The notes beneath the pieces were generated by a model. It was given only the letters and a program-made list of their open reading frames with translations, ran no database searches and was not told the DNA's origin. A program made the translations under genes and the position numbers. Below, in pieces: positions 36,137 to 53,481 of a stretch of 64,000 nt of DNA. Every line of letters starts with the position of its first letter. The first letter of the stretch is position 1. The stretch comes from a virus: the IMG/VR virus record IMGVR_UViG_3300024255_000002; one strand, given 5' to 3'.

Positions 36137-36141
36137 TAGAT

Positions 36142-36156
36142 GTTCACGTTTTGTTC
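36142..36156. promoter_or_regulatory. Alphaproteobacterial LexA (SOS) box-like site GTTC-N7-GTTC
   Basis: GTTC-ACGTTTT-GTTC; near-identical copy at 53419. Confidence 0.6.
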
Positions 36157-36202
36157 TTCTTAAAAACCACAAAAACCCAGTAAAATCAACGTTTTTTAGT
36201 GC

Positions 36203-36231
36203 TTGACTTTTAAGCCTTTTTCATGTATAGT
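36203..36231 (+). promoter_or_regulatory. sigma70 promoter TTGACT-17-TATAGT
   Basis: Near-consensus; heads the early region. Confidence 0.75.
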
Positions 36232-36257
36232 ATGTGTATATGACAAAAAAAAACACT

Positions 36258-36743
36258 ATGAAAAAACAAAAAGGTTTTAGTTTAGTTGAATTACTTGTAG
36301 TAGTCGCTATATTAGGAATATTATCATCTATTGGTATTGTATCTTATTCAAAATTTACATACGGTGCCAAAATTACTGTAACACATAAGTTCCATGAACA
36401 AGTAAAAAAATATATTATTTCAGAAACAAATAAATGTGATGTAGGATTTGATAAGATTTTTGAGGCAGATAACGGAACTCATATCACTTGCAGTGAATTA
36501 AGTAGTAATTCAGGTTCTGCTTGGGATGGATTTGATATACAATTAATGAGAGTGTTCAAAGATACACCAAACGTTTGGGGCGCAGACCCTTTTAAAGAGG
36601 CATTAAATGTTGATTGGCACCCAAAGGCAGGTTATGTTAATGTTAGACACAGAGGTGGTGAAGTGCTAATGCAAACTTGTTTAGAAAAAACTTGTAAAGA
36701 CAATTATAAAATTAGAGAAATGATACAAATTAATGGAATATAA
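36258..36743 (+). CDS. Type IV pilin/pseudopilin-like protein
   Basis: Class III signal KKQKG|FSLVELLVVVAILGIL; four Cys in the head domain. Confidence 0.85.
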   Translation: MKKQKGFSLVELLVVVAILGILSSIGIVSYSKFTYGAKITVTHKFHEQVKKYIISETNKCDVGFDKIFEADNGTHITCSELSSNSGSAWDGFDIQLMRVFKDTPNVWGADPFKEALNVDWHPKAGYVNVRHRGGEVLMQTCLEKTCKDNYKIREMIQINGI

Positions 36744-36762
36744 TATGAAGGAGAAAAACACT

Positions 36763-37185
36763 ATGGAAAAAAATACAGACAAATACTTTCAATCTTTTAA
36801 CGTTGTTTATAAGAGAGAGTACCGTGATCCTGAGGAAGGTTATGAAACTTTTTGGAGTTCATCTACTATGTACAGAAATGTACCTATCTCTAAGATTAAG
36901 TATTATAGAAAACAATTACTTAATTTTAAAGATTATGCAACCAAAATGTATAATGAAGAAGCTAGTAACTTCACAGGTGCTACTGCTATTGAGATAATAT
37001 ATCCAGATGAATATTATCAAACATATGCAGATGTATTCGGTCCAGAAACGGCTGCTGGTGATAATCATTTATTTAATGATTTTGGTCAGTTGTATAATGG
37101 TAGACAAGGGTTTAGAAAGGACTTTGATTCCGACTTAACAAAAAATTATACAACAAGAAAAAACTATATTTACAATTTAAGTTAG
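36763..37185 (+). CDS. Early hypothetical protein
   Basis: GGAG SD and AAACACTATG start. Confidence 0.65.
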   Translation: MEKNTDKYFQSFNVVYKREYRDPEEGYETFWSSSTMYRNVPISKIKYYRKQLLNFKDYATKMYNEEASNFTGATAIEIIYPDEYYQTYADVFGPETAAGDNHLFNDFGQLYNGRQGFRKDFDSDLTKNYTTRKNYIYNLS

Positions 37186-37194
37186 GAGAAAACT

Positions 37195-37608
37195 ATGACA
37201 GTAGAAACAAACATAATATACACAGACAAAGACTTAGGTAAAAATCTCTATAGACAAAAGAGATATTATACTTTAGTAGTAGAACAAGAAGTGTTGGCAA
37301 ATAACCAAGAAGAAGCAGATAATAAACTTGTAGAACATGGCGGAATAAGTCACTCTATGATTAATGCTGAAATTACAAATGAAAACGAGGGTGTTCAAAC
37401 ATATATGATAGATGCTAATTATTCAGACAGTGATAAAACTGAATACATGGGTAAAATAGTATATGAGGATGAGGAGTTTGCTAAAGAAGATGGTTTGGTT
37501 GAAATAGACAAATACATTGATGAAAATGCTTTAACTGATAGAGACAAAGAAGAATCAGATATTGATGTGGCAATAACATTAGAAGCAGAAAATGAAAGAG
37601 GTAAATAA
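37195..37608 (+). CDS. Acidic early hypothetical protein
   Basis: GGAG SD; Asp/Glu-rich. Confidence 0.65.
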   Translation: MTVETNIIYTDKDLGKNLYRQKRYYTLVVEQEVLANNQEEADNKLVEHGGISHSMINAEITNENEGVQTYMIDANYSDSDKTEYMGKIVYEDEEFAKEDGLVEIDKYIDENALTDRDKEESDIDVAITLEAENERGK

Positions 37609-37781
37609 TGACAACTAGAAACGCAGTAATAATAAAAGTAAGAAAGCATGGTCAAAAAGATTTTGAAACAGATAGTATCTATGTTGATCATATGCCAGGT
37701 TTTGAAAATAGAATCAAACAGCATATACAAAATGCAAAAGAAGACACTACCAATGCTGAAGTGAGAATCGAAGACTTATAA
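37608..37781 (+). CDS. 57 aa hypothetical protein (not in ORF track)
   Basis: MTTRNAVIIKV...; TAATG coupling at both ends. Confidence 0.55.
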   Translation: MTTRNAVIIKVRKHGQKDFETDSIYVDHMPGFENRIKQHIQNAKEDTTNAEVRIEDL

Positions 37782-38098
37782 TGAAAAAGAAAACAAAAGA
37801 ACTGAATCAATCACACAACGCATGGATTAAGTCGTTAGGTGTTAATATTGATGTAAAGACAGGCAAAGTAAAGAAAAAAGAGTTTCGTGGTTGTGTTATG
37901 CCTAACTACAATGCAGATATTAACGGTGTTGAGAGAGTATCTATACCACTAGGTAACAGAATACCTGTAGGTTGTACTAAAGTGAAAATGCCCAAAGTAC
38001 AACTTCCAGAAGGCAAAACCATAGGAATTGCGTATAATAAGGGGAATTATCAGATAATTGATAGTGCCGACTTTAAAACAATGGGCAAAAAGGTGTGA
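37781..38098 (+). CDS. Hypothetical protein
   Basis: TIGIAYNKGNYQ motif recognised from marine T4-likes. Confidence 0.65.
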   Translation: MKKKTKELNQSHNAWIKSLGVNIDVKTGKVKKKEFRGCVMPNYNADINGVERVSIPLGNRIPVGCTKVKMPKVQLPEGKTIGIAYNKGNYQIIDSADFKTMGKKV

Positions 38099-38120
38099 CG
38101 TTTTAGCACACATAAACATG

Positions 38121-38149
38121 TTGACTTTGTGCTTAAACTATGATAGGAT
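38121..38149 (+). promoter_or_regulatory. sigma70-like promoter TTGACT-17-TAGGAT
   Basis: 17 nt spacing, extended TG, upstream GTGAC-N5-AGCAC box. Confidence 0.65.
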
Positions 38150-38184
38150 AAAGTCAATTAATAACAACAAAAGGAAAAAACACT

Positions 38185-38538
38185 ATGTTTGACAAAGATA
38201 CAATATTTGCAGAATTTAATCATGCAAAACAAAAAGACTTAAAAATGTCTAAAAAGAAATCGCCGTATGAGTCTGTTTTTACAAACAGAATTGAGTTATT
38301 AAAATCTCATATTGAAGCAAAAAAATCGCATCCGAAATACTATAGAGGATGTAAGATAAACTTTGAAAACTTGTTACTTGCATATCAATCGCCAGTGCCA
38401 GTTGATCATTTTTATAAAGTCGGATTTAATATGTCTTATGCAGAATATCTAAGTCAGAAAAATGCCGAAGATAAAGATACAAAAGACGAAACGTATAATA
38501 ACGAAAGAAGTAATGTTAAAGAAGTTACTTTTAATTAG
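38185..38538 (+). CDS. Early hypothetical protein
   Basis: AAGGA SD and AAACACTATG start. Confidence 0.65.
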   Translation: MFDKDTIFAEFNHAKQKDLKMSKKKSPYESVFTNRIELLKSHIEAKKSHPKYYRGCKINFENLLLAYQSPVPVDHFYKVGFNMSYAEYLSQKNAEDKDTKDETYNNERSNVKEVTFN

Positions 38539-38998
38539 TAGTTTAACTTTGTTGTTGAATCAGTGTGCTGTTAAGAACGCCGCTGTTTCAACATCAGGTT
38601 CAACTTTAGGTGCTATAACAGCAGGAGGAACTTGTGCCTCTGTTGTAAGTACTGATCCTGCTGTAGTGGGTGCGTGTGCTGTTGTTGGTGCCGTGCATGG
38701 TGCAGATCAGATATGGAATGATGATTTTAATGTTCATAAGAAGTTTTTTGTTGACCATTTAATTGGTGCACCAAATAAACCGAATATAACAAATTGGTAT
38801 AATCCTAAAACTAAAAGTTTTGGTATTATAAAAACAAACAATACTTGGTACAAAGGTCCTATTAAATGTAGAGACTACGAATCAACTATTAATATTACAC
38901 CGTCTTGGCCAGTTGCTTACTTTGGTGGTCCTGTTAGAAGAACAGACTTTGGTATTGCATGTATATTACCAGACGGAAGAGTGGAGATACAAGAATAG
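38513..38998 (+). CDS. 17-kDa-surface-antigen-like glycine-zipper lipoprotein
   Basis: Lipobox-like LNQC; GAxxAGG zipper; WYNP..CRDY..GIAC.LPDG. Confidence 0.7.
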   Translation: MLKKLLLISSLTLLLNQCAVKNAAVSTSGSTLGAITAGGTCASVVSTDPAVVGACAVVGAVHGADQIWNDDFNVHKKFFVDHLIGAPNKPNITNWYNPKTKSFGIIKTNNTWYKGPIKCRDYESTINITPSWPVAYFGGPVRRTDFGIACILPDGRVEIQE

Positions 38999-39582
38999 TG
39001 AAATTTGCAGACGAATTTATATCTTATTTGTTTTTAGTGTTAATTGTTACTTTGTTGTTAATGATGAAAGGTCATGCTTGTGTTGAGTGTGACCTTTCAG
39101 GTGATACCTATCCCATTGACAATATAAGTTTATCAACAGAAATAAAAGAAGATACAAATATACAAATGGCAAAGGTCAACATTGATGATATAAAAGTTAA
39201 ACCTATCACAGATACAATAAAAGATAGTGACGTGGTTAAATCAAAAATCAAAGATGTATTCATGCAGAATGGTCAATATTGTTTTATTGAAGTTGTTATT
39301 AAACAACAAGGTGATGATATTGTTAAAAAAGAAGTTATGAAATGTAGTGAAACACCTGAATTTGAGTCTGATAAAAAAGATCAAATAATTGAACAACTCA
39401 AAAAAGAAATAGAACTGGAAAAGGCTAGAAAACCAGGATATTGGGAGTTGTTTGCTGACTTCTATTATAGAGACGAGAACGCTCCTCTTTATTGTAGAAA
39501 ATACTCTAGGCCCGACAGTTGGTTTAAAATTCCTGGAACTGCTTGTCTGAAACCAACAGGAGAATGGAAGATAATAAAATGA
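38959..39582 (+). CDS. Exported Cys-containing hypothetical protein
   Basis: N-terminal hydrophobic segment; ends TACLKPTGEWKI like the preceding lipoprotein. Confidence 0.55.
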   Translation: MYITRRKSGDTRIVKFADEFISYLFLVLIVTLLLMMKGHACVECDLSGDTYPIDNISLSTEIKEDTNIQMAKVNIDDIKVKPITDTIKDSDVVKSKIKDVFMQNGQYCFIEVVIKQQGDDIVKKEVMKCSETPEFESDKKDQIIEQLKKEIELEKARKPGYWELFADFYYRDENAPLYCRKYSRPDSWFKIPGTACLKPTGEWKIIK

Positions 39583-39746
39583 TAAGACTAATATTTACAG
39601 CGTCAATATTGTGGATTGCTGTTGCATTTACTTGGGATCCTTTTGTTACTGCTGTTGAGAAAACACAGGCTGTTGACAAAACGAAAGAAATAGTGTATAA
39701 TGTAATTAATAAAGTGAAGGAGAAAACTAATAATGTTGAAAGTTAA
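39579..39746 (+). CDS. Small membrane protein
   Basis: N-terminal TM. Confidence 0.5.
   Translation: MIRLIFTASILWIAVAFTWDPFVTAVEKTQAVDKTKEIVYNVINKVKEKTNNVES
39673..39701 (+). promoter_or_regulatory. Intragenic sigma70 promoter TTGACA-17-TATAAT
   Basis: Perfect consensus upstream of 39733. Confidence 0.75.
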
Positions 39747-40353
39747 TAAGTTAGTATTACTTTTTGTTGTAGGTTTAACGTTAGGTGCATGTAGCACTGG
39801 AACTTACAATATCAAAAGTGAGAAGAAAGATTCCGTTAGAAAAGTACCTGCTTGGTACATGGCGGATATTGCTGAAAGAAAAGCATGTGATAAGAAGATA
39901 TACGGTGAATCAAAAGATAAACAGTGTATCTATGGTGTTGGAACAAGTGTTTCACCAGACTTAGAACTTGCTATTGATAAGGCAAAGATGATTGCCAAGG
40001 CTGAAATGGCAGACATCATACAAGGTGAAATGAACAAAAAGATTAAAATTTTTGTTGCTGAGGTTGGTAAAACACAACAGAAAACTATTGTGTCAGATGT
40101 AGAGTCTGCTTTAGTGAACCAAATCTCTCAAACACCTGTTAGAGGATATGAAGTATTTGCTCAGGAAGTTACAATGACTAAGAATGGTTATTATCGTGCT
40201 TGGGTAGGTTTAAGATTACCTCTAGGTAACTTTAACAAAATGTATAACTATTCTGTTGATACAGTTGTGGATGCTTATAAGTTAAAACAACTTGCTGAAA
40301 AAGCATATGACAGTGTTGAAGTAGTAGAGGAACAAAATGGTAACAATTTATAG
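39733..40353 (+). CDS. LPP20-like lipoprotein
   Basis: Lipobox LGAC; VPAWY, GVGTS.S.DL.LA.DKA...AKAE. Confidence 0.65.
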   Translation: MLKVNKLVLLFVVGLTLGACSTGTYNIKSEKKDSVRKVPAWYMADIAERKACDKKIYGESKDKQCIYGVGTSVSPDLELAIDKAKMIAKAEMADIIQGEMNKKIKIFVAEVGKTQQKTIVSDVESALVNQISQTPVRGYEVFAQEVTMTKNGYYRAWVGLRLPLGNFNKMYNYSVDTVVDAYKLKQLAEKAYDSVEVVEEQNGNNL

Positions 40354-40597
40354 TAAACCAAATTGCGTATTTTGTGATAAGTCTAAGGCCTTGTTAAAAG
40401 GCCTAGGCATTAAGTACGAAGAAAAAATGTTTGGTAAAGATTTTAATACACCTGAAGAACTATACGAAGCAGTAGGTAAACAGGTGAGAACTATGCCACA
40501 AGTTATTATTGATAATAAACATATCGGTGGTTATAATGAGTTAGTTGAATACTATACAGACAAAGGATTAGTTAATTTTAAAGGTGAAAAGGTTTAA
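40337..40597 (+). CDS. nrdC: Glutaredoxin
   Basis: CVFC, TMPQV, IGGY. Confidence 0.92.
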   Translation: MVTIYSKPNCVFCDKSKALLKGLGIKYEEKMFGKDFNTPEELYEAVGKQVRTMPQVIIDNKHIGGYNELVEYYTDKGLVNFKGEKV

Positions 40598-40953
40598 TGT
40601 CAGTTGAAAATAATATAATAGATTTTCCTAAGAAGTTTAAAAGACAATCTACGGAAAAAGATGCAGAAATGCAAAAAAGAATTGCACAAGAACATCAAAA
40701 GATATTTTGTCAGGCAATGATGGATGAAATAACTGAAGCTATTTTAGTCAAGTTACATAGTGAAAACTTAAATGTAACAGGAAAAGATTTTTTAAAAGAT
40801 TATAAACTTGTATCAGAGGCTATAAAATCTATGATGTATAGAACACAAGAGTTAAAACACGGATTGCAAGAAAGAGTTGATAGGGCAGTAACATCGACAT
40901 ATAATAAAAATAAAACTATCAACACAATATCGATAGACCTCGATAAGCTATAG
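40597..40953 (+). CDS. Hypothetical protein
   Basis: NIIDFP N-terminus; coupled ORF. Confidence 0.6.
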   Translation: MSVENNIIDFPKKFKRQSTEKDAEMQKRIAQEHQKIFCQAMMDEITEAILVKLHSENLNVTGKDFLKDYKLVSEAIKSMMYRTQELKHGLQERVDRAVTSTYNKNKTINTISIDLDKL

Positions 40954-41043
40954 AATTCCATAAGGCACTTTGGAATAGATTGTATATGTGGCAAGTATAT
41001 GATCTTATAATTAACGCCAACTATATAATAAAGGAGTGAATAA

Positions 41044-41376
41044 ATGTTTAAATCATTATTCTCAAACGACTCATTAAAAGTCGTATCAAAATCAAAAAAA
41101 ACTGTAACAAGAGGCAGAAAAACTTTGTCAAAAAGACAAAAAGTTTTAAACCTTTTAAGTAAAGGTAATGAAGTATCTTGGAAAGTTTTAAGAACTAAAT
41201 TTGATTTAGTTTCTCCAAGAGCATTAATTGATACTTTAAGATCAGAAGGCAATATGATCTATATCAATAAAACTGCTAAAGGAACTGCTTACAGAATGGG
41301 TAACCCAACTAAAGCGATTATCGCTGCTGGTATCCAAAAGTTATACGGAACTCCGTACGCTTACGGCAATAACTAA
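41044..41376 (+). CDS. Small basic winged-helix-like DNA/RNA-binding protein
   Basis: KVLNLL..G...PRALIDTLRSEG..IY; AAGGAG SD; followed by a UUCG hairpin. Confidence 0.55.
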   Translation: MFKSLFSNDSLKVVSKSKKTVTRGRKTLSKRQKVLNLLSKGNEVSWKVLRTKFDLVSPRALIDTLRSEGNMIYINKTAKGTAYRMGNPTKAIIAAGIQKLYGTPYAYGNN

Positions 41377-41397
41377 TATTAGATTAGTACATATTTT

Positions 41398-41415
41398 GGT
41401 GGCCTTCGGGCCACC
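41398..41415 (+). terminator. cUUCGg tetraloop hairpin
   Basis: GGTGGCC-TTCG-GGCCACC. Confidence 0.75.
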
Positions 41416-41434
41416 ATATCCACAAAATTCCACT

Positions 41435-41442
41435 TATAAATA
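41435..41442 (+). promoter_or_regulatory. Late promoter TATAAATA
   Basis: Exact consensus. Confidence 0.75.
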
Positions 41443-41448
41443 ATATTA

Positions 41449-41517
41449 CGATAACAAAACGGAGCTAGCAAATGTTATCGAAAGGTAAGTGAAAGCTAGC
41501 GGTAGTAGCTTACCTTT
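41449..41517 (+). ncRNA. Candidate structured RNA (two hairpins, both loops containing GCUAGC)
   Basis: Stems CGATAACA/TGTTATCG and AAAGGTAAG/CTTACCTTT. Confidence 0.55.
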
Positions 41518-41547
41518 AAAACTATATAACAAAATGAGGAGAAACTT

Positions 41548-42024
41548 ATGACAGTTCAATCACAAGCTTTGGATTACGCTGGTTCAACAGCACCAATGCT
41601 TTCAGAAATACTAAAAAAAGTATCAGACGCTAAAGACAAAGCATCTAAAATTTCAATACTAAAAGAAAATGATTCAGTACCTTTAAGACAGATATTAAAG
41701 GGTGCATTTTATTCTAAGATAGAATGGGAATTACCTGCTGGTGAACCACCTTACACTGTGAACGAGGCACCTGCTGGAACAGAGCATACAACCTTACACA
41801 CTGAGGCCAGACTATTATGGCACTTTGTTAAGGGCGCTGATGTGAAAACATCTAAATCTAAAAAAGAAATAATGTTTATTCAAATGCTAGAAGGATTACA
41901 CGCTAACGAGGCAAAACTTTTATTAAATGTAAAAGATAAGAAATTATCTAAGGTTTACAAGGGTTTAACCGAGACCGTAGTTAAGACAGCATTCGATTGG
42001 AATGACGATTACAAAACTGCTTAA
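41548..42024 (+). CDS. Conserved T4-like hypothetical protein (DUF6433-like)
   Basis: LPAGEPPY, EIMFIQMLEGLH..EA.LL..VKDK.L. Confidence 0.7.
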   Translation: MTVQSQALDYAGSTAPMLSEILKKVSDAKDKASKISILKENDSVPLRQILKGAFYSKIEWELPAGEPPYTVNEAPAGTEHTTLHTEARLLWHFVKGADVKTSKSKKEIMFIQMLEGLHANEAKLLLNVKDKKLSKVYKGLTETVVKTAFDWNDDYKTA

Positions 42025-42151
42025 TCACTAAATAATAAAAAGCGATTCGAATACTAAAGGTGTGACATTTTTGCAACAGTGCAGGATTGTCGCACCCTAT
42101 ATTATTGTTGATTTTACTTGGTTATTTTATCATCTTTTTTGAATTTTTTGC

Positions 42152-42180
42152 TTGTATTATGCAGTAAAATAGTGTATTAT
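42152..42180 (+). promoter_or_regulatory. sigma70-like promoter TTGTAT-17-TATTAT
   Basis: 17 nt spacing; upstream of the SD at 42214. Confidence 0.5.
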
Positions 42181-42213
42181 ATAAGTATAAAAACAAACAA
42201 AAGGAGAATCAAT

Positions 42214-42399
42214 ATGTCAAAAATAAAACAATACATTGAAACATCAGTAGAAAATGCTGTTGATAAAATAATTAAAACATTAAGTGATGGTCAAATAGAC
42301 TTTGATACTTGTAAATCAAAGATATTAGAACTTGATAACCTATCAATGGTAGGAATTGATTCAGAAAATGTTGATGAAGTTATATCGGAGAACATATAG
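42214..42399 (+). CDS. Hypothetical protein
   Basis: AAGGAG SD; start re-called at MSKIK. Confidence 0.6.
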   Translation: MSKIKQYIETSVENAVDKIIKTLSDGQIDFDTCKSKILELDNLSMVGIDSENVDEVISENI

Positions 42400-42728
42400 T
42401 GAAGAAATCATTTTTTATATTATTTTTATTATTCATGTACACTTGGTCTTGGTCTATCTTTAGTGTTGCCAAGGCAGATGAATATGGCAAGACAGTTGTT
42501 GGTCATGTAATAACTAATGCTAAAGAGATTGATACAACTGCTTTGTTAGAAGCAGAACTACAAAGACTTGCTCATAATTATTCTATTGAAATGATTGGTA
42601 TACTACAGGTATATTTACCTAGTATCTTAGACAGTGTTGCTGCTGAAATGAAACAAAATGCTGATAAAACTTTTAAATGTGCTTTATTAAAAGGAACAGG
42701 AAACGATTGCAAAAATGAAAACAACTAA
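42399..42728 (+). CDS. Exported hypothetical protein
   Basis: Signal peptide ending AKA-D. Confidence 0.6.
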   Translation: MKKSFFILFLLFMYTWSWSIFSVAKADEYGKTVVGHVITNAKEIDTTALLEAELQRLAHNYSIEMIGILQVYLPSILDSVAAEMKQNADKTFKCALLKGTGNDCKNENN

Positions 42729-43128
42729 AAAATCGAAGGCCTTGAAATTTAGAAAAAAAGTGAAATTAAATATGAGCACTAATAAACAATATATTACCAC
42801 TTACAAAGACATTAAAAAGTATTTTAAAGAATTAAACATACTTATTTTCAATAATGAGTTATCACCGTTTAACCAGATTGAAATTAAAGACCTAAGACGT
42901 GAGAAATGTGTGGGTCAAGTTGTAACTATGGAATGGAAAAGAAAAGGCACTAGAATATATAAACTAGAAATGATGCCGAAGTATTCCAACAAAAGAGATT
43001 TTATGGACACTTTAGTCCATGAAATGGTACATTTGTACCAAATGGTAAACAAAGGCGATACCGGTAACCACAATGAAATGTTTTATTCATTTGAAGGAAA
43101 AGTTAACTATATCGGACTACAACTATAA
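42715..43128 (+). CDS. SprT-like zinc metalloprotease
   Basis: TLVHEMVH...H..F. Confidence 0.75.
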   Translation: MKTTKKSKALKFRKKVKLNMSTNKQYITTYKDIKKYFKELNILIFNNELSPFNQIEIKDLRREKCVGQVVTMEWKRKGTRIYKLEMMPKYSNKRDFMDTLVHEMVHLYQMVNKGDTGNHNEMFYSFEGKVNYIGLQL

Positions 43129-43141
43129 TAAGGATAATATA

Positions 43142-43417
43142 ATGAGTAAGAGTGAGAAGAATCAAATTGATGAGTGGTTACAAACACAAATCAGAAAAGG
43201 CATAAACATAGTTGATTATGTTTGGCAAAATAAATCTAACAAGTGGGAACTATATTACACAGGACATTTGCATAAAGATATCCTAGATAACTTTCCAGGT
43301 AGAACTAATAAAAAAATATTTGCAGGATACAAACAGTATTTAAATAAACCAAATCTAATGTTTACTCAAAAGAAATTTGATGAACATGGATATAACTACT
43401 ATGTAAGGAGTATATAA
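43142..43417 (+). CDS. Hypothetical protein
   Basis: AAGGA SD; start re-called at MSKSE. Confidence 0.55.
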   Translation: MSKSEKNQIDEWLQTQIRKGINIVDYVWQNKSNKWELYYTGHLHKDILDNFPGRTNKKIFAGYKQYLNKPNLMFTQKKFDEHGYNYYVRSI

Positions 43418-44434: not shown

Positions 44435-44435
44435 T

Positions 44436-44837
44436 ATGAATAAATTGATGGCAACTATAGTAACAATTATGTTATTAAACACAAACGTATATGCTGAGGA
44501 ATTAACTGAATTTCAAAAGTGGATTGCAGAACCAGGTGCTGAAGTTGAACAGTATGTTCAGGCAACCAGAGATAACAGCGATGGAACTTGGAGAATACCT
44601 GATGAAAATCTAATAATGAAAAAGATTGATGACAAAGAGAATTTTTGGTTTGTCCTTAATACAAAAAACTGTTGGGTTTTCTATGTAAGAGGTGATAATG
44701 CTGAACAAGCATTTTACAACTATACATCAAATACAAGTAGTTATGGTTTTAACTTTGCAGGTAGAGAAGATGAGATTATGCAACTTAAAAAGAAGTATGG
44801 AATCATTAAAACTTTGGGAGAAGTTAATCACTCTTAA
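44436..44837 (+). CDS. Exported hypothetical protein
   Basis: Signal peptide VYA-E. Confidence 0.6.
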   Translation: MNKLMATIVTIMLLNTNVYAEELTEFQKWIAEPGAEVEQYVQATRDNSDGTWRIPDENLIMKKIDDKENFWFVLNTKNCWVFYVRGDNAEQAFYNYTSNTSSYGFNFAGREDEIMQLKKKYGIIKTLGEVNHS

Positions 44838-45812: not shown

Positions 45813-45830
45813 AAATGGAAAGAGAACATT

Positions 45831-46102: not shown

Positions 46103-46106
46103 ACAT

Positions 46107-46292: not shown

Positions 46293-46606
46293 TGCCAATC
46301 TATACATTTGAAAATAAAAAGACTAATGAAGTCTATGATGAAATGATGACCATTTCTGAAATGGAAGAATATCTTAAAAAGAACAAACATGTAAAACAAC
46401 AGATTACAAGTGTTAATATTGTAGGTGGTGTTAGTGGTATTAGTTATAGAGGTGATCAAGGATGGAAAGAAGTGCAATCTAAGATAGCAGAAGCACATCC
46501 ACAAAGTCATCTTGCAAAAGAACATAGAAAAAGATCAATTAAAGAGATAAAAACAGATCAAGTAATTAAAAAACATAGGGCTAGACAACATGGAAAAAAT
46601 AAATAA
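46292..46606 (+). CDS. FmdB-like small protein
   Basis: MPIYTF.N..T.E...MTISEMEEYL; GWKEV.SKI. Confidence 0.6.
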   Translation: MPIYTFENKKTNEVYDEMMTISEMEEYLKKNKHVKQQITSVNIVGGVSGISYRGDQGWKEVQSKIAEAHPQSHLAKEHRKRSIKEIKTDQVIKKHRARQHGKNK

Positions 46607-46609
46607 TAC

Positions 46610-46724
46610 TATACAAAGTGAGCAACTGAAAAGCAACGGTCGTATACCAGAGACGAGTAGGTCAATCCACTTTTTGTATAATTCCATAAAAAGGGCAGGA
46701 CTTCCTGCTAGGAAGCTTGCCCTT
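46610..46724 (+). ncRNA. Candidate structured intergenic RNA/leader
   Basis: Closing stem TATACAAAGTG/CACTTTTTGTATA plus hairpin AAGGGCAGG-CTTCCT/AGGAAG-CTTGCCCTT. Confidence 0.45.
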
Positions 46725-46740
46725 AATTAAAGGAGAACTC

Positions 46741-47136
46741 ATGGCAGATTTACCAGATTTTATGAGAGAGTTTGATACAGATGTAGATTACGGTTTTACA
46801 GCTGTTTCTTCAAAACCAGAAACAGAAAAACAACCAACTATTGATCCATCAGTTATTGAAAACTCTAATTTAGAATTAGCGAAAGTTAAAACAGATGTTG
46901 CAGATATCAAAACAATGATGAACGAGATAATGCAAATTACAGCAGAAAAAGAAACTGTTACAAAAGAAATACAGGACGCTGACACTGTAAAAAGATTTAA
47001 AGAAATAGAAAAAATAGTATTACCATTTTTATACAACTTATCAAAATCAAATGAGCCTTACATACACTGGCCGAATAGAGCGCCGATAATTAAGGCACAA
47101 ATGGATAAGTTATTACAACTAACAAGAGGAAAATAA
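46741..47136 (+). CDS. Conserved T4-like hypothetical protein
   Basis: DYGFTAV; LPFLYNL.K..EPYIHWPNR. Confidence 0.65.
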   Translation: MADLPDFMREFDTDVDYGFTAVSSKPETEKQPTIDPSVIENSNLELAKVKTDVADIKTMMNEIMQITAEKETVTKEIQDADTVKRFKEIEKIVLPFLYNLSKSNEPYIHWPNRAPIIKAQMDKLLQLTRGK

Positions 47137-47606
47137 TGAAACTAAGTAACAATTTTAGCTTAAGCGAAATGACTAGAAGTCAAACAGCTACTCGTAGGGG
47201 AATTAACAATAACCCTAGTGAAGATCACATGAATAATTTAAAAGAGTTATGCGAAAACGTATTACAACCTGTTAGAGATCACTTTAAAAAAGTGGTTTCA
47301 ATATCTAGCGGCTATAGAAGTCCAGAGTTGTGTGAAGCAATAGGATCATCTAAAACATCACAGCATGCCAAAGGCCAGGCTGCAGACTTTGAAATTCATA
47401 GTCTTTCAAATGCTGAACTAGTAAAATGGATCAGTGAAAATTGTGAATTCGACCAAATGATATTGGAATTTCATAACTTAGATGAACCGAACAGTGGTTG
47501 GGTGCATTGCTCATATAGAGCAGATGGTGAAAACCGAAAACAAATATTGAGAGCATATAAAAACGATAGTAACAAAACTTGTTACGAATCTTACGATCCT
47601 AAATGA
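47136..47606 (+). CDS. Peptidase M15A (endolysin candidate)
   Basis: LSNNFSLSE, SSGYRS, SQHAKGQAAD, WVHCS. Confidence 0.88.
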   Translation: MKLSNNFSLSEMTRSQTATRRGINNNPSEDHMNNLKELCENVLQPVRDHFKKVVSISSGYRSPELCEAIGSSKTSQHAKGQAADFEIHSLSNAELVKWISENCEFDQMILEFHNLDEPNSGWVHCSYRADGENRKQILRAYKNDSNKTCYESYDPK

Positions 47607-47685
47607 AAGGAAAAACGGGATAAATTAAGACAAAGTCCCGATTTAATCAATGATCATATGATGGAATATAGATCATCATAGGTGC

Positions 47686-47714
47686 TTGACATTCTTCTAT
47701 TTTTGTGTTATAAT
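47686..47714 (+). promoter_or_regulatory. sigma70 promoter TTGACA-17-TATAAT
   Basis: Perfect consensus. Confidence 0.8.
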
Positions 47715-47738
47715 AGACACTTAAACAATAGGAGAAAT

Positions 47739-47900
47739 ATGGAAAATATAAAAAACTGGTTAATTGCAGAAAAAGAAAACATTATTGAGTTTCAAAAAAA
47801 GAGTTGGGAACAAGGTAAAGCTCAATTAACTGAAAATGGTGAAACTATAAATCAAGCAGTTGAGACAGTTACAACCTTTATTCAATCATCTTTGATGTAA
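47739..47900 (+). CDS. Small hypothetical protein
   Basis: GGAG SD; start re-called at MENIK. Confidence 0.55.
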   Translation: MENIKNWLIAEKENIIEFQKKSWEQGKAQLTENGETINQAVETVTTFIQSSLM

Positions 47901-47918
47901 CAATAGGAAAAATATATT

Positions 47919-48635
47919 ATGACTTTTAAACATGTGAAATTAGATCAATCCGTCTTACCAAAAAACTTAGGTAAAAAGGGTAAGAATCAAAACGGAATTA
48001 GAATCTATGAAGTAGATGGTGTAAATATGCCATCTGTTACATCTATCTTAGGATCAATACCAGAGAAGAAACTAGTATTAGAGAAGTGGAGAAAGGCCGT
48101 TGGTGAAGCAATGGCAAGTTATATCTCACTTCAGGCAACATCCAGAGGTAAGACAACTCACACACTTATAGAAAATCATTTAAACAATGAAGATGAGAAG
48201 TCTATAGGAATTACAAAAGTAGGACCATTAGGTCTTTTTAGAATTGTTAAACCTTATCTAGCAAGAATAGAAGAAATTTATTTGTTAGAGGAAATAATGT
48301 ATTCAAAAGAATGGTCAGTTGCAGGTCAAGTTGATTGCGTTGCTACATACAAAGGCAAGTTATCTATTATTGACTTTAAAACCTCGACAAAACAAAGAGA
48401 CGAAAAATACAACTATTCTAACTTTTTACAATGTTCAGCATATGCTAAAATGTTTGAAGAACTATATCCTAAGAAGAAGATAGAACAAACAGTAATTTTA
48501 GCTGCTTGTGAAGACGGTTTTGTACAAGAATGGATACATGGTAAAGACAAGATTAAAGAACACCAAGAGTTATTTGTTAAACACACAACTGATTTTTTCA
48601 ATCAACATAGCAAACAAATAGCGAATGTAGTATAA
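47919..48635 (+). CDS. PD-(D/E)XK exonuclease
   Basis: PSVTSIL, RGKTTH, AGQVDC, IIDFKTS, QCSAYA. Confidence 0.88.
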   Translation: MTFKHVKLDQSVLPKNLGKKGKNQNGIRIYEVDGVNMPSVTSILGSIPEKKLVLEKWRKAVGEAMASYISLQATSRGKTTHTLIENHLNNEDEKSIGITKVGPLGLFRIVKPYLARIEEIYLLEEIMYSKEWSVAGQVDCVATYKGKLSIIDFKTSTKQRDEKYNYSNFLQCSAYAKMFEELYPKKKIEQTVILAACEDGFVQEWIHGKDKIKEHQELFVKHTTDFFNQHSKQIANVV

Positions 48636-48638
48636 ATA
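48631..48638 (+). promoter_or_regulatory. Late promoter TATAAATA
   Basis: Exact consensus. Confidence 0.7.
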
Positions 48639-48661
48639 GTTAAGTCAACAAGGACTTACTA

Positions 48662-49021
48662 ATGAAAAAACTATTACTCACATTGTTATTATGTTTATTT
48701 GCTACAGCATCACATTCAGATCATAAACCGCTTAATCTAGTACCATCAGAAATGCCAGTTTGGTGTGGGTTACCTGCTGACACAGAAAAATATGTAAGAG
48801 ATCATAACTATACACCTATATCAATTTCATTTGGTAGAGTTGGTGCTAGTGCAGATGGCGAAGTAGTTTTTGCTTCAATCATCTATATAAACATGGAGAA
48901 CGATCAGTTAATACCAATGATGATTACACCAGATGGTTCACAATCGTGTTTAATATACATTACATTTAATTTTTCATTGAACGAAGAAGTAAAAGAACAA
49001 TTTAAGGAATATATAAAATAA
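48662..49021 (+). CDS. Exported hypothetical protein
   Basis: Signal peptide; PVWCG...SCL. Confidence 0.6.
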   Translation: MKKLLLTLLLCLFATASHSDHKPLNLVPSEMPVWCGLPADTEKYVRDHNYTPISISFGRVGASADGEVVFASIIYINMENDQLIPMMITPDGSQSCLIYITFNFSLNEEVKEQFKEYIK

Positions 49022-49066
49022 TGTGGCCATATACAGATGAAGAAGCCAAGTGGCTTAAATAGAATA

Positions 49067-49095
49067 TTGACTTTTAAACATAAACGTGTTATAAT
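49067..49095 (+). promoter_or_regulatory. sigma70 promoter TTGACT-17-TATAAT
   Basis: Near-consensus, 5 nt before the ATG. Confidence 0.75.
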
Positions 49096-49100
49096 AAGAT

Positions 49101-49637
49101 ATGAAACAATTTAAACAACTTTATAACGAAGCAAGTTTGAGTAGAGTCTATTCTCATACTCAAAAAAGAAACATTGCTATCGTATCTGCTGAAAGAGATC
49201 AGTTTACAAAGGCTGAAAATGCCAAAAGAACAAAAGAACTAAAGGCAGATATTAGAAGAAATGGATTTGGTTTCTTAACTATCAAAGGCATATATCAAGG
49301 AACAGTTGAAATGTCTTTTATGATAATCGGTCCTGAAGATAAAGATAAGAATAGAACAAAACAATTTGCTGTTGCTCTAGGTAAAAAATATTCACAAGAC
49401 TCTGTTTTAGTAAAACAACCAGATAACGATAACGCTTATGTTGTAGGTACAAACACAACAGGTAGTTTAGGTATGGGTAGAGAGGCGTCACTAGGTAAGT
49501 GGCACCCTAACAGATCAGGTGAATATCTAAGTGCATTAGGAAACAAAAAGAGTAAAACATTTGTTTTTGAAAGTATAAAGTTTGAATATCAAAATAGAGA
49601 ATACGCCAACCGAGAACGAGATATGGTTGAATTTTAA
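49101..49637 (+). CDS. Conserved phage protein (EASLSR family), probably head-targeted
   Basis: MKQFKQLYNEASLSR, SAER...N..R..EL, LGKKYSQDSV. Confidence 0.6.
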   Translation: MKQFKQLYNEASLSRVYSHTQKRNIAIVSAERDQFTKAENAKRTKELKADIRRNGFGFLTIKGIYQGTVEMSFMIIGPEDKDKNRTKQFAVALGKKYSQDSVLVKQPDNDNAYVVGTNTTGSLGMGREASLGKWHPNRSGEYLSALGNKKSKTFVFESIKFEYQNREYANRERDMVEF

Positions 49638-49654
49638 ACAATAGGAATTATATT

Positions 49655-49876
49655 ATGTTGATGAATAGTAAAAGGTTTGGATTGCTTATAGAAGCAATGG
49701 TTAAAGAGAGAAGAATTCCATACATGGATGCTGTGTTAAAATATTGTGAAGAAAACGATATAGACACGTCAACTGTAGGACCATTAATAAACAAATCACT
49801 AAAAGAAAAAATACAAATGGAGGCTGAGAAGTTGAACCTGATTGAAAAATCAAGTACTGCTTGTTTGCCACTATGA
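49655..49876 (+). CDS. 33: Late transcription co-activator gp33
   Basis: YMDAVLKYCEEN.I, LKEKI..EA..LN. Confidence 0.85.
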   Translation: MLMNSKRFGLLIEAMVKERRIPYMDAVLKYCEENDIDTSTVGPLINKSLKEKIQMEAEKLNLIEKSSTACLPL

Positions 49877-50475
49877 CGAGTTATGAATGTTACAGGTTAT
49901 ATCTTGCTATTAAGTTGCATTTTACTTCCGACAGTTATGACTATTTTAAACATAACGCTAAAGTAAATTGCAGTATGAATACGTTTCTAAAAAGAAACGA
50001 TAGGTTTTTCTTCCATAAATTAACGACTAAATATAACGAAGAAGAATTGATGATGTATTTCGTTTCAAACTTCTTAAACAAAACCAAAACTTGGGTAGGG
50101 GATTTAGTAAGAAATGAAGGAGAAACTAATTACAACGATTGGAAGAAATATAATGAATCTTTTAGTTACAATTTTCGAAATGATTGTACTGTTTTTTATA
50201 ATGACCTTAGCGACAACTCTATTCGCTTTGATGATGGTCTCTTATGCAATAGCGGACAACATCCTATCTTGCTACGGTTACTTCTTTCAAAAAAGATCAG
50301 ATTGGAAACGATCATCATCTTTGATAAGATATTATCGTTTGTTAAGAATTGGGATAAGAACATATCGGAACAAGTTATCTGGCCTGATGTCTCAAAAAGG
50401 TTAAAAAAGTATTCACCATTTGTTAGATATAATACAACTAAATGTAAATTTATAATGAGAGAGGTGTTTGTATGA
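49873..50475 (+). CDS. 59: Helicase loader gp59
   Basis: YLAIKLHFT..SYDY.K, KRNDRFFF; gp33-gp59-gp32 synteny. Confidence 0.88.
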   Translation: MTSYECYRLYLAIKLHFTSDSYDYFKHNAKVNCSMNTFLKRNDRFFFHKLTTKYNEEELMMYFVSNFLNKTKTWVGDLVRNEGETNYNDWKKYNESFSYNFRNDCTVFYNDLSDNSIRFDDGLLCNSGQHPILLRLLLSKKIRLETIIIFDKILSFVKNWDKNISEQVIWPDVSKRLKKYSPFVRYNTTKCKFIMREVFV

Positions 50476-51086
50476 ACATAAGTGTAATTGATAAAATGGG
50501 TAGTGACTTATCAGTAGTTAATGCTGCTAGAGTATCTTTTAATAAATTCAAATCAAAGTTCGATGACAAAGACGAAAAACTTATAAAGTATTTGGCAGAC
50601 CATGAACACTGGTCACCATTTGCTCATGCGTCTATATCTTTTAGAATAAAGGCACCTATATTTGTAGCAAGACAACTAGTTAAACATCAAGTAGGACTAG
50701 TATGGAATGAAGTTAGTCGAAGATATGTAGATGAAGAACCAGAGTTTTTTGTACCTTTCATGTGGAGAAAAAAGGCAGAAAATAAAAAACAAGGATCAAG
50801 TGACGAAGAAGTTGAATTTGATATTACAGATTTTGTAAAGTCAGCAAAAGAATTATATGGTTCTATGTTAGATAAGGATATTGCACCTGAAATGGCAAGA
50901 ATGATATTACCACAAAACATGATGACAGAATGGATATGGTCAGGTTCAATCTATGCATTTGCTAGAGTGTGTAATTTAAGAAATAAAAAAGACTCTCAAG
51001 TAGAAACTAGAGAAGTGAGTATGCAACTTACCAGACACATAAAAGATCATTTTCCTATGTGTCACAAATATTTGATTAAGGAGTAG
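50472..51086 (+). CDS. thyX: FAD-dependent thymidylate synthase
   Basis: VVNAARVSF, HWSPF, ARQLVKH, NEVSRRY, EMARMILP. Confidence 0.95.
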   Translation: MNISVIDKMGSDLSVVNAARVSFNKFKSKFDDKDEKLIKYLADHEHWSPFAHASISFRIKAPIFVARQLVKHQVGLVWNEVSRRYVDEEPEFFVPFMWRKKAENKKQGSSDEEVEFDITDFVKSAKELYGSMLDKDIAPEMARMILPQNMMTEWIWSGSIYAFARVCNLRNKKDSQVETREVSMQLTRHIKDHFPMCHKYLIKE

Positions 51087-51088
51087 TT

Positions 51089-51337
51089 ATGGATTATAAT
51101 GATATGTTACCAGAGACTAATAAAAGAGGTGATACAAAAATTGATAGAGTTTATATGGATTTACATGGCAAAGTATATGTAGTTTTAAAAGATGCTACAA
51201 CTGAATACAATGTACAAAAGAAATCTATTAAGTTAGATAATGGTTCATTAGGACATGTTTATAACTATAAAAACAAATGGTTTGATAGAACAGGAATGCC
51301 TATTGATAAACCTAATAATTTGATAACAAGATTATAA
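51089..51337 (+). CDS. Hypothetical protein
   Basis: GGAG SD; 82 aa ORF. Confidence 0.55.
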   Translation: MDYNDMLPETNKRGDTKIDRVYMDLHGKVYVVLKDATTEYNVQKKSIKLDNGSLGHVYNYKNKWFDRTGMPIDKPNNLITRL

Positions 51338-51338
51338 A

Positions 51339-52214
51339 ATGAAACGAGTATTTTGTATAGGTAACGGTGAAAGTCGTAGAGACTTTCCTTTGCAATCACT
51401 AAAACAACACGGCAAGATTTATATGTGTAACGCTGCTTATAGAGAAGAAGCAGATTTAATAGATGTATTGACGGCAGTTGATAATGGTATTGTACATGAA
51501 ATATATCACAGTGGTTTTGCTTATGACAAACCATGTTGGTTCAGAAACTGGACAAAAGTACCTGCTGAAATGTATGATACAGTTGTTGGTGGATTTGTTA
51601 CAAGTGAAGACTACAACTTAGTAAAAGACTTTGATGTTATAAAAGAAAACGAAAGAGGTGACGCAAAAGAATTTGTAATACACGGAACATCTATTGCTGG
51701 TATGGCAAGTATTATTAAAAATGTAAAGAGATCACATCCTAATGCTACACCAGATATAGTAAAAAAGAAAATACAAAGTTCACAGGTATTTGTTTCTTGG
51801 ATACATGAGAATGATAAGTCACATGATTTAAGAGAAGTGTTTAAAGATTACAAAGATCATGGTTGGGCATGTGGACCATCTAGTGGATACATTGCTACAA
51901 AGGTAGAACAACCAGATGAAATATATTTGTTAGGCCATGACCTAGTTTCAGATACATTGCTTTTAAATAATATGTTTAAAAATACAAAACACTACGGCAT
52001 AGATAAGAATAGTGCCATACCAGCAGACAACTGGATTAGTCAGTGGTATACCTTAATAGATTGGAATCCTAATATCAAGTTCTATAAGGTAAACAAAGGC
52101 ACAGATAATAAACCCACCAACAAGAAAATAGACAAGTGGAATAAGTGGGAAGAACAAGGTAGATTGCAATATATAACCCAAGCACAGCTTGTTGACAAAA
52201 TGAGTAAAGTGTGA
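51339..52214 (+). CDS. Maf/DUF115-like glycosyltransferase-related protein
   Basis: CIGNGES, CNA, SSG, IYLLGHD. Confidence 0.5.
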   Translation: MKRVFCIGNGESRRDFPLQSLKQHGKIYMCNAAYREEADLIDVLTAVDNGIVHEIYHSGFAYDKPCWFRNWTKVPAEMYDTVVGGFVTSEDYNLVKDFDVIKENERGDAKEFVIHGTSIAGMASIIKNVKRSHPNATPDIVKKKIQSSQVFVSWIHENDKSHDLREVFKDYKDHGWACGPSSGYIATKVEQPDEIYLLGHDLVSDTLLLNNMFKNTKHYGIDKNSAIPADNWISQWYTLIDWNPNIKFYKVNKGTDNKPTNKKIDKWNKWEEQGRLQYITQAQLVDKMSKV

Positions 52215-52220
52215 TATAAT
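52192..52220 (+). promoter_or_regulatory. sigma70 promoter TTGACA-17-TATAAT
   Basis: Perfect consensus. Confidence 0.8.
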
Positions 52221-52227
52221 AAGAATT

Positions 52228-52404
52228 ATGTTTGATAACTTTGTTTATAGAATACTAGACTGGATTGTGAGTCGATGTGGAAAGATTAAAGAATGGAAAA
52301 TTCAAAAATCATTACCACGTCCAAAACCCACAGCACAACAGTGGGCTAAAGAATATAAGAAATTTAAAGAAAAAACTTATAAAAATAATGATGATTGCCA
52401 GTAA
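52228..52404 (+). CDS. 58 aa hypothetical protein (not in ORF track)
   Basis: MFDNFVYRILDW...; starts 7 nt after the -10 box. Confidence 0.5.
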   Translation: MFDNFVYRILDWIVSRCGKIKEWKIQKSLPRPKPTAQQWAKEYKKFKEKTYKNNDDCQ

Positions 52405-52410
52405 AAGTTT

Positions 52411-52418
52411 TATAAATA
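52411..52418 (+). promoter_or_regulatory. Late promoter TATAAATA upstream of gp32
   Basis: Exact consensus. Confidence 0.65.
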
Positions 52419-52441
52419 ATACTATACTTACATTTAAATTA

Positions 52442-52477
52442 ATACATACAACAATACATACAAGGAGATACATACAA
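52442..52477 (+). repeat. Three ATACATACAA repeats spanning the gp32 ribosome-binding site
   Basis: Copies at 52442, 52454 and 52468. Confidence 0.8.
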
Positions 52478-53367
52478 TGTCAAGTGCATTAGAAGCCCTA
52501 AAAAAGTCAAAGTCAAACTTTGATACACTAACTAAACAGTTAGAAAAATCAATCGAACAACCTGAAAAGAAAAAGTCATACCAAGACGATAGATTCTGGA
52601 AACCAGAGTTAGATAAATCTGGTAACGGATATGCAGTAATTAGATTTTTACCTGCTATCGAAGGTGAAGACTTACCATGGCAGAGAGTCTGGAATCATGC
52701 TTTTCAAGGACCAGGTGGTCAGTGGTATATTGAAAACTCATTGACAACTTTAAATCAAAAAGATCCTGTTAGTGAAGAAAACACTAGATTGTGGAATACA
52801 GGTATCGAAGCAGATAAAGAGATTGCTAGAAAAAGAAAAAGAAAGTTATCACACTATTCTAATATTCTAGTTGTTTCTGATCCAAAAAATCCAGAGAACG
52901 ATGGCAAAGTTTTCTTATTCAAATTCGGTAAAAAGATATTTGATAAGATTACTGAAGCGATGAATCCTCAATTTGAAGATGAGAAGGCAGTTAACCCATT
53001 TGATTTTTGGGAAGGTGCAAACTTCAAACTAAAAATCAGAAAAGTTGATGGATACTGGAATTACGATAAGTCTGAATTTGAGCCAGTTAGTAGAGTAAAA
53101 CCTACTGATGAGGAGATTGACACTTTGTGGAAATCTCAACATGCTCTAAAGGCCTTCATTGATCCAAGTAACTTTAAGTCTTATGACGAACTCAAAGAGA
53201 AACTGAATAAGACACTTACTGGACAAAGAAGTACAGAAACGGTTGAGGATATTGATCTCCCACCAATTAGTAATGATGTTCCTCATACTAACGTTTCTGT
53301 AGGAAAAGAGGATGAATCTACTGATGATTTGTCTTATTTTAGCAAGTTAGCGGAAGACGATTCCTAA
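52477..53367 (+). CDS. 32: Single-stranded DNA-binding protein gp32
   Basis: DDRFWKP.LDKSGNGYAVIRFLP, WYIENSLTT, PFDFWEGANF, acidic tail. Confidence 0.97.
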   Translation: MSSALEALKKSKSNFDTLTKQLEKSIEQPEKKKSYQDDRFWKPELDKSGNGYAVIRFLPAIEGEDLPWQRVWNHAFQGPGGQWYIENSLTTLNQKDPVSEENTRLWNTGIEADKEIARKRKRKLSHYSNILVVSDPKNPENDGKVFLFKFGKKIFDKITEAMNPQFEDEKAVNPFDFWEGANFKLKIRKVDGYWNYDKSEFEPVSRVKPTDEEIDTLWKSQHALKAFIDPSNFKSYDELKEKLNKTLTGQRSTETVEDIDLPPISNDVPHTNVSVGKEDESTDDLSYFSKLAEDDS

Positions 53368-53390
53368 ACTATCTCTCTCACTTTTCCAAA

Positions 53391-53410
53391 GGGTGGCCTT
53401 CGGGCCACCC
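53391..53410 (+). terminator. cUUCGg tetraloop hairpin
   Basis: GGGTGGCC-TTCG-GGCCACCC after gp32. Confidence 0.8.
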
Positions 53411-53418
53411 TACTAAAT

Positions 53419-53433
53419 GTTCTCGTTTTGTTC
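53419..53433. promoter_or_regulatory. LexA (SOS) box-like site GTTC-N7-GTTC
   Basis: GTTC-TCGTTTT-GTTC. Confidence 0.6.
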
Positions 53434-53481
53434 TCATCTAAAATACACATAAAATAACCCTAAAAAAGACCAGTTTCACGC

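Follow-up and report, generated by a model that had tools for sequence, protein, structure and literature searches.

In the Alphaproteobacteria Rhodobacter, Sinorhizobium, and Caulobacter, the SOS box is the direct repeat GTTC-N7-GTTC (PMC8565304, PMC12700426). Here we describe two copies of this repeat in a 64,000-nucleotide (nt) stretch of viral DNA, the IMG/VR record IMGVR_UViG_3300024255_000002 (hereafter, the window); each copy lies upstream of an early promoter of a T4-like phage of SAR11 bacteria. Temperate elements are known to co-opt the host's LexA; examples are GIL01, CTXphi, coliphage 186, and the SPC32H antirepressors (Fornelos et al. 2016 via PMC9437464; PMC6182141). Virulent phages that carry sites for a host master regulator have also been described, under the term "lytic deferment"; the regulator is Spo0A in phi29 and CtrA (TTAA-N7-TTAA sites) in phages of Alphaproteobacteria (PMC9437464). 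In T4-type phages, PeSL cassettes, in which a stem-loop is combined with an early promoter close to the sigma-70 consensus, border variable genes (PMC2839356, PMC4122927).

We found in the literature no paper describing LexA boxes in pelagimyophages (SAR11 myophages) or in lytic or T4-like phages, and no infection transcriptome of the pelagimyophage HTVC008M. To our knowledge, nothing is known of how pelagimyophages regulate their genes. The comparative pelagimyophage paper, in which middle and late promoters were not found, makes no mention of LexA (PMC7029224), nor does the paper on phage Melnitz.

The two boxes in the window are as follows.

36140-36157, plus strand: box 1, ATGTTCACGTTTTGTTCT, a LexA-operator-like direct repeat with its GTTC-N7-GTTC core at 36142-36156
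53417-53434, plus strand: box 2, ATGTTCTCGTTTTGTTCT, a LexA-operator-like direct repeat with its GTTC-N7-GTTC core at 53419-53433

A sequence-only reading of this DNA had reported two near-identical, intergenic 18-mers here, each with the LexA-type repeat, and we confirmed their positions, their placement between genes, and the exact match of both to the direct repeat GTTC-N7-GTTC (or GAAC-N7-GAAC). The boxes are identical at 17 of 18 positions. Box 1 starts 3 nt past the stop codon of the open reading frame (ORF) at 35450-36136, and box 2 starts 6 nt past a hairpin (53391-53410) that is itself downstream of the gp32 gene. The bare 8-base pattern occurred 4 times in the window versus 1.5 times expected (7 of 100 shuffles reached 4), and the remaining two matches (27270 and 59240) fall inside genes. 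The 18-mer, with three or fewer mismatches allowed, occurred twice versus 0.4 times expected (3 of 100 shuffles). These window-only statistics are modest, and the significance of the boxes arises only with the comparative data.

The reading that we favor, and hold to be rather probable, is that the 18-mers are copies of the SAR11 LexA operator, located at the upstream border of certain intergenic cassettes with early promoters, where LexA would bind them and modulate the promoter. The sequence comparisons give good support to the identity of the boxes as host LexA sites, and also to a site that would act at the DNA level, copies the host LexA operator, and is specific to SAR11 phages. Because the boxes near-copy host LexA sites upstream of early promoters, part of the viral program is probably tied to the damage state of the host.

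The window has a GC content of ~31%, and nearly all of its genes are on one strand. It is T4-like, with a gp32 gene and relatives among the Kyanoviridae, and the Pelagibacter phage Mosig was its only DNA-level match among isolated phages. The window is a pelagimyophage, and the nearest isolates infect Pelagibacter HTCC1062. The alphaproteobacterial host that had been proposed from the boxes thus agrees with the grouping of the phage among SAR11 myophages, its own host being assigned from its nearest isolates and relatives; for HTVC008M and Mosig, HTCC1062 is known experimentally to be the host. A near relative, G001, is a 68-kb IMG/VR record that shares 54% of the window's sampled words. It keeps box 1, and a third box, GTTCTCTTTTTGTTC, precedes its gene for a 703-amino-acid (aa) "peptidase"; the equivalent place lies ~15 kb before the window. 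Box 2 was unchanged in eight close relatives in IMG/VR; because the two downstream proteins are 94 to 98% identical in such relatives, this invariance carries little weight.

To define the host operators, SAR11 genomes were found with the published 16S probe SAR11-441R, which matched only Pelagibacteraceae records; the operators given here are predictions from sequence. A lexA gene (TIGR00498, above cut-off) was present in five of five SAR11 genomes, and its promoter has GAACTTTTATAGAAC 27 nt before the ATG. The umuD (NF007621) and umuC genes are located behind GAACAAAAYAAGAAC, which adjoins the start codon, in 29 of 30 Pelagibacteraceae genomes; the pattern beside the start codon at these umuD loci is GAACAAA[A/T][C/T/G]AAGAAC. 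The extended pattern TGTTCNNNTTTTGTTC occurs once per SAR11 genome, solely at umuD, with umuC next to it. At recA, an imperfect box, GAACAAAATGTGTAC, was conserved in five of five genomes. GTTC-N7-GTTC is therefore not only the alphaproteobacterial LexA pattern, as had been claimed, but one that SAR11, which encodes LexA, uses on its own SOS genes: lexA itself, umuDC, and, imperfectly, recA.

Compared with these operators, the reverse complement of box 2, GAACAAAACGAGAAC, matches the commonest umuDC operator at 14 of 15 positions and has the same sequence as the HTVC008M box at 134997. The reverse complement of box 1, GAACAAAACGTGAAC, matches both the umuDC and the recA operators at 13 of 15. 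We found no binding study of LexA in SAR11 in the literature. A "complete SOS system" (recA, lexA, umuD, and umuC) is, however, induced in HTCC1062 during infection by the pelagiphage HTVC027P, and host nrdAB also rises, both groups of genes mid to late in infection (PMC12753301). Our predicted operator set agrees with that gene set, and because another pelagiphage induces the SOS genes, LexA changes state during infections of HTCC1062.

Two further features of the SAR11 genomes were observed. The gene nrdA, for ribonucleotide reductase alpha, diverges from a phosphogluco/mannomutase gene, and a conserved box, GAACATTTATAGAAC, is located between the two (L258:1501-1515 in G002; L265 in G003), which suggests that nucleotide supply may belong to a small SAR11 SOS regulon. 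The SAR11_0636 small RNA (RF01827, 95.8 bits) is at L437:1322-1412 in G002, between a GFA-like gene and umuD, on the strand opposite umuD, with the umuDC operator ~50 nt away. This RNA includes ATGTTCACGTTTTGATTC, the first 14 bases of which are those of phage box 1, as well as three GANTC sites and a DnaA-box-like word, TTATCCACA; its GTTC-N4-TTTGATTC part was kept in many of the 30 genomes examined.

Boxes of the same type are present between the genes of the isolated SAR11 myophages.

HTVC008M, 30100, 87259, 133406, and 134997: intergenic boxes directly after a stop codon, upstream of TTGAC promoters
Mosig, 13971 and 117858: intergenic boxes directly after a stop codon, upstream of TTGAC promoters

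The HTVC008M box at 133406 and the Mosig box at 13971 match the host umuDC operator at 15 of 15 bases, against an expectation of ~0.0006 per genome. When the window, G001, HTVC008M, and Mosig were taken together, 8 of 18 GTTC-N7-GTTC matches were intergenic according to the automatic ORF call, which is crude, and 10 of 18 were intergenic when the calls were corrected by reading the GenBank annotation where available; intergenic DNA makes up 5 to 8% of these four sequences. With the other spacings from N3 to N11, only 1 of 82 matches in the same sequences was intergenic (Fisher P = 2.6e-8 for N7 versus the others). None of 12 GTTC-N7-GTTC matches was intergenic in the cyanomyophages P-SSM2 and P-SSM4, related Kyanoviridae that infect Prochlorococcus, and none of 7 was intergenic in the close pelagimyophage relative Melnitz, which has the methylotroph OM43 as its host. 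The difference between the SAR11 myophages (10 of 18) and these relatives with non-alphaproteobacterial hosts (0 of 19) was significant (P = 1.3e-4). The genome-wide scan thus revealed an intergenic enrichment that is specific both to the N7 spacing and to SAR11 myophages.

Neither CTGT-N8-ACAG (LexA of the gamma/beta type) nor TTAA-N7-TTAA (CtrA) was enriched between genes in the five phage sequences examined. In HTVC008M, Mosig, and G001, a search limited to the DNA-binding domain of the LexA type (PF01726) found none encoded, and because of this the LexA of the host is the obvious reader of the boxes. The SAR11 podophages HTVC010P and HTVC019P had zero GTTC-N7-GTTC matches. The SAR11 podophage HTVC011P (KC465900, T7-like) has a single intergenic TGTTCTATAGTTGTTCT at 3346-3362 (L334:1500-1516). 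It is upstream of a small-gene operon that ends in an integrase gene, the only example of a box near an integrase, and is a candidate switch of the classical, LexA-controlled kind in a temperate podophage of SAR11.

The gene for the "peptidase," a protein with an HExxH motif and a D-x-S-x-S motif, the latter putatively of the VWA type, is common to marine T4-like phages, so its loci could be surveyed without choosing them by the motif. An N7 box was present within 330 nt at 16 of the 73 loci with enough upstream DNA, and the control spacings gave 1 (N5), 0 (N6), 0 (N8), and 2 (N9). The promoter had an intergenic box in HTVC008M, Mosig, G001, and 11 of ~28 low-GC pelagimyophage-like IMG/VR loci. 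No intergenic box was found at the ~45 higher-GC loci, where four boxes were at 119 to 170 nt before the start and no neighboring promoter was found. The box is in the GAAC orientation in HTVC008M, Mosig, L352, L354, L371, and L379 and in the GTTC orientation in G001, L349, L350, L360, L362, and L363. Its cores are exact, and its spacers vary (TCCTTTT, TTGTTTT, TGGTAAT, TGGTTCT, TGGTTTA, TTACTTT, and GCTGTTT). Exact cores, differing spacers, and either orientation form the pattern expected of a protein-binding DNA site, an assignment that is well supported. Because the orientation relative to transcription flips at orthologous sites, a role at the RNA level was ruled out. Loci with no box have a shorter intergenic region. 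Non-consensus -10 hexamers were considered as a sign of activation and rejected, as box-less orthologues have them too. Conservation at orthologous promoters, which had been named as a check on the LexA interpretation, is therefore partial: the box recurs in either orientation with exact cores, but many relatives lack it.

The core of the box ends 46 nt before the -35 element at site 1 and 48 nt before it at site 2. Among site classes, which are not fully independent phylogenetically, distances of 41 to 48 nt were found in eleven, including both window sites; distances of 35 to 37 nt in three; distances of 77 to 81 nt in five, in each of which another hairpin separates the box from the promoter; and distances of 23 to 24, 10, and ~65 nt in one each. 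The "matching distance" noted for the two boxes thus reflects a real mode at 41 to 48 nt but not a rule, for the range is 10 to 81 nt. Given the usual promoter geometry, the box centers would be at about -89 and -91 relative to the start site. SAR11 host boxes sit between the -10 element and the start codon; the phage boxes neither overlap nor abut the core promoter or the start, so they cannot simply block RNA polymerase. Helical phasing of the box-to-promoter distances was tried and rejected (Rayleigh P = 0.16 at 10.5 bp; the best period, 11.3 bp, had a corrected value of ~0.06). Termination by a roadblock plus hairpin was rejected as well: the hairpin is before the box at site 2 and after the box in HTVC008M and Mosig, and because it is on different sides of the box, there is no common roadblock geometry.

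The features that surround the two boxes are listed below in the order of their coordinates.

36171-36190, plus strand: A-rich element AAAAACCCAGTAAAATCAAC, between box 1 and promoter 1, putatively UP-element-like in function
36203-36231, plus strand: promoter 1, sigma-70-type early promoter (TTGACT-17-TATAGT), a consensus match
36258-36743, plus strand: first gene behind promoter 1, encoding a 161-aa protein with a type IV pilin N-terminal methylation motif (Pfam PF07963, E 5e-10)
52477-53367, plus strand: gp32 gene for the single-stranded-DNA-binding protein, upstream of box 2 (PF08804, E 2e-44)
53391-53410, plus strand: GC-rich hairpin GGGTGGCC-TTCG-GGCCACCC, between gp32 and box 2, terminator-like with no adjacent T-run
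53482-53510, plus strand: promoter 2, sigma-70-type early promoter (TTGACA-17-TATAGT), a consensus match
53576-55015, plus strand: gene behind promoter 2, encoding a 479-aa protein with a C-terminal HNH endonuclease domain (PF13395, E 3e-11)

All promoters discussed here are predicted from consensus matches. The A-rich element recurs as AAAACCYAGTAAAATCAAC in many pelagimyophage-like intergenic regions, including the upstream regions of L349 to L380. It is found 11 to 12 nt upstream of the -35 element at many pelagimyophage early promoters (consensus gtgcTTGAC), and promoters of this class have it with or without a LexA-type box; it may be UP-element-like or a site for a bending protein. In relatives, the hairpin has an alternative stem, GGGGTGCC/GGCACCC, in which the pairing is kept. 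The gene behind promoter 1 had been called a pilin gene; its product does have the type IV pilin N-terminal methylation motif. The label "GmrSD-like nuclease" for the product of the gene behind promoter 2 could not be upheld, as Pfam detected only the HNH domain in this protein and no DUF262/GmrSD signature. An N-terminal stretch of the same protein, IVVDGWNR, recalls the DGQQR motif of DUF262/ParB-like domains. The HNH gene is followed by a minus-strand ORF (55012-55509), the only sizeable one of the region on that strand.

Four marine metatranscriptome runs cover the region, as contigs only. Word depth was highest over gp32, but depth is flat per contig and gives no ranking of genes. Contigs in three of the runs end at 53372, 53375, and 53448, and one contig spans 52260-54491. 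We did not use these contigs as evidence, for they reveal no transcript ends and are silent on LexA. In a contig of run X3, position 42840 is joined to 47902, with 37 other letters replacing 5,061 bases of small ORFs, and in a contig of run X1, 28 bases are missing at 44791; these differences are natural structural variants of the accessory-gene region between early promoters.

If the boxes are host LexA sites, LexA would bind them in the undamaged cell and modulate the adjacent early promoter. It might do so by interfering with, or contacting, the upstream-DNA/alpha-subunit region beside the A-rich element, or by hindering polymerases that read through from upstream genes. RecA-stimulated cleavage of LexA would then lift the effect, in cells damaged by ultraviolet light (UV) or later in infection. 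The effect could be a damping or a boosting one. Tapias et al. reportedly described, in 2002, a dual role of LexA, both activating and repressing, at recA of Rhodobacter sphaeroides. Positive regulation by LexA has a reported precedent in Mycobacterium tuberculosis (PMC3381160). A box centered at about -89 or -91 cannot act as a classical SOS operator, so that the SOS control proposed by the sequence-only reading is putative. Nothing points to the pseudolysogeny-to-lysis switch that was proposed along with it, which was speculation.

Several observations weigh against the reading that the boxes are LexA-bound modulators of early promoters. Only 2 of the ~10 strong promoters in the window have a box, and the genes downstream of boxes (pilin-like, HNH, and VWA/metallopeptidase-like) are not obviously connected with DNA damage. 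The geometry, with core-to--35 distances spread from 10 to 81 nt, is unlike that of any host operator, and these distances show no significant helical phasing. Fewer than half of the orthologous "peptidase" promoters have a box, and at the Mosig junction that appears orthologous to site 1, a hairpin and a promoter are present and the box is absent; because it is missing at these places, we regard the box as an optional element that is gained and lost. Last, the same 17-mer is found in 11-bp-phased tandem arrays of unrelated viral contigs, and because of these arrays there may be another reader of the sequence. Such a reader could be a pelagimyophage DNA-binding protein or a second host factor that recognizes 11-bp-phased direct repeats, in which case the likeness to the SOS box would be coincidental. 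We consider this unlikely. A far-upstream position is typical of activator sites, the spacer NCGTTTT in this clade is more uniform than LexA requires, and the unit of the arrays, TTGTTCAC(G/C)T, recurs in 11-bp tandem upstream of terminase in L116 and L119. However, the extended motif is confined to SOS genes in the host, the umuDC operator recurs without change in several phage boxes, and the cores are exact across phages while the spacers vary. Intergenic boxes are lacking in Melnitz, which is closely related but infects a non-alphaproteobacterial host, and the absence of a LexA-type DNA-binding domain from the phages, in which other folds were not surveyed, also argues against a reader of their own.

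It is quite unlikely, in our judgment, that the boxes act on LexA rather than on the promoter, as decoys that titrate LexA off the few host operators as phage DNA replicates and so turn SOS on without damage. The position next to a promoter would then be incidental, and because a host box adjoins nrdA, the induced set might include ribonucleotide reductase. The host regulon does seem tiny (lexA, umuDC, recA, and the one nrdA/mutase intergenic box), the phage boxes copy the umuDC operator with exact cores and family-wide, and SOS and nrdAB genes go up mid to late in the infection by another pelagiphage (PMC12753301). Nearly all intergenic regions hold a promoter, so that "upstream of a promoter" may mean only "intergenic." Yet a pure decoy has no need of the 41- to 48-nt mode seen in eleven site classes, there are just two to four boxes per genome, and many relatives have none. 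We give still less credence to the box as an unbound passenger, retained as part of a mobile PeSL-like promoter/stem-loop cassette for recombinational gene shuffling. Conserved stem-loop and early-promoter cassettes do flank variable genes in T4-type phages (PMC2839356, PMC4122927), and the boxes are at the borders of accessory-gene blocks. L057 has gp32, the hairpin, and the box as at site 2, followed by a promoter at another distance and by different downstream sequence. But a recombination module would conserve sequence, not two 4-base cores at exactly N7, in either orientation, with diverging spacers, and it would neither match host SOS operators nor be confined to SAR11 phages.

The arrays in other viruses deserve a description of their own. 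Their unit is TTTGTTCAC[G/C]T, giving GTTCACGTTTTGTTC, in 3 to 7 copies with 11-bp phasing and sometimes an inverted copy; the contigs that carry them have a GC content of 0.35 to 0.56. The arrays of L116 and L119 are just upstream of terminase genes.

IMG/VR array loci: L116:1049-1184; L119:6618-6868 and 8226-8240; L032:4858-5554; L090:11860-12219; L091:74-164; L068:77-142

These could be LexA-site arrays in other phages of Alphaproteobacteria or sites of another protein.

A broader proposal, which we put forward tentatively, is that lytic T4-like SAR11 phages use the intact LexA of the host as a far-upstream sensor for accessory early operons, or else that their boxes titrate LexA. In the case of a sensor, the pilin-like, HNH nuclease, and VWA/metallopeptidase (with CobS) operons would depend on the SOS state, for example, under daytime UV; in the case of titration, replication of the boxes would induce the SOS and nucleotide-supply genes of the host. 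In both cases, a virulent phage would be using LexA in a new way, and this in the virus-host pair that is the most abundant of the ocean. SAR11 and its phages rank with the most abundant biological entities of the sea, and if LexA does modulate phage promoters through these boxes, there would be a testable link between damage of the host by sunlight or UV and the viral program. LexA co-option would also be extended from temperate elements to virulent phages, with LexA acting from far upstream. In addition, the boxes could be used as a mark for host prediction, setting SAR11 myophages apart from closely related phages that infect OM43 and cyanobacteria.

Compared with described systems, the phage boxes share with the alphaproteobacterial SOS box the GTTC repeat and the 7-nt spacer, and they share 13 to 15 of 15 bases with the host umuDC operator. 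They differ from the SAR11 host operators in placement: the latter are in the GAAC orientation between the -10 element and the start codon, whereas the phage boxes are in either orientation, 10 to 81 nt upstream of the -35 element, and directly after the upstream gene's stop codon or a hairpin. As in GIL01, CTXphi, 186, and SPC32H, a mobile element has host LexA sites, and for the phage described here expression is predicted to follow the SOS state of the host. In those temperate elements, however, the sites overlap the promoters of the lytic switch, whereas in this T4-like phage they lie at a long distance upstream of accessory-gene early promoters. The phages with Spo0A and CtrA sites offer a parallel in that a virulent phage reads host physiology through intergenic sites for a host factor, as is predicted here; the regulator would be LexA and the signal DNA damage, and TTAA-N7-TTAA itself was not enriched between genes. 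Site 2, with its hairpin at 53391-53410 and its promoter, shows a PeSL-like layout, but an upstream direct repeat is not part of the PeSLs described so far, and at site 1 the promoter is without a stem-loop. Relative to the PeSL, the LexA-type box is an optional extra element.

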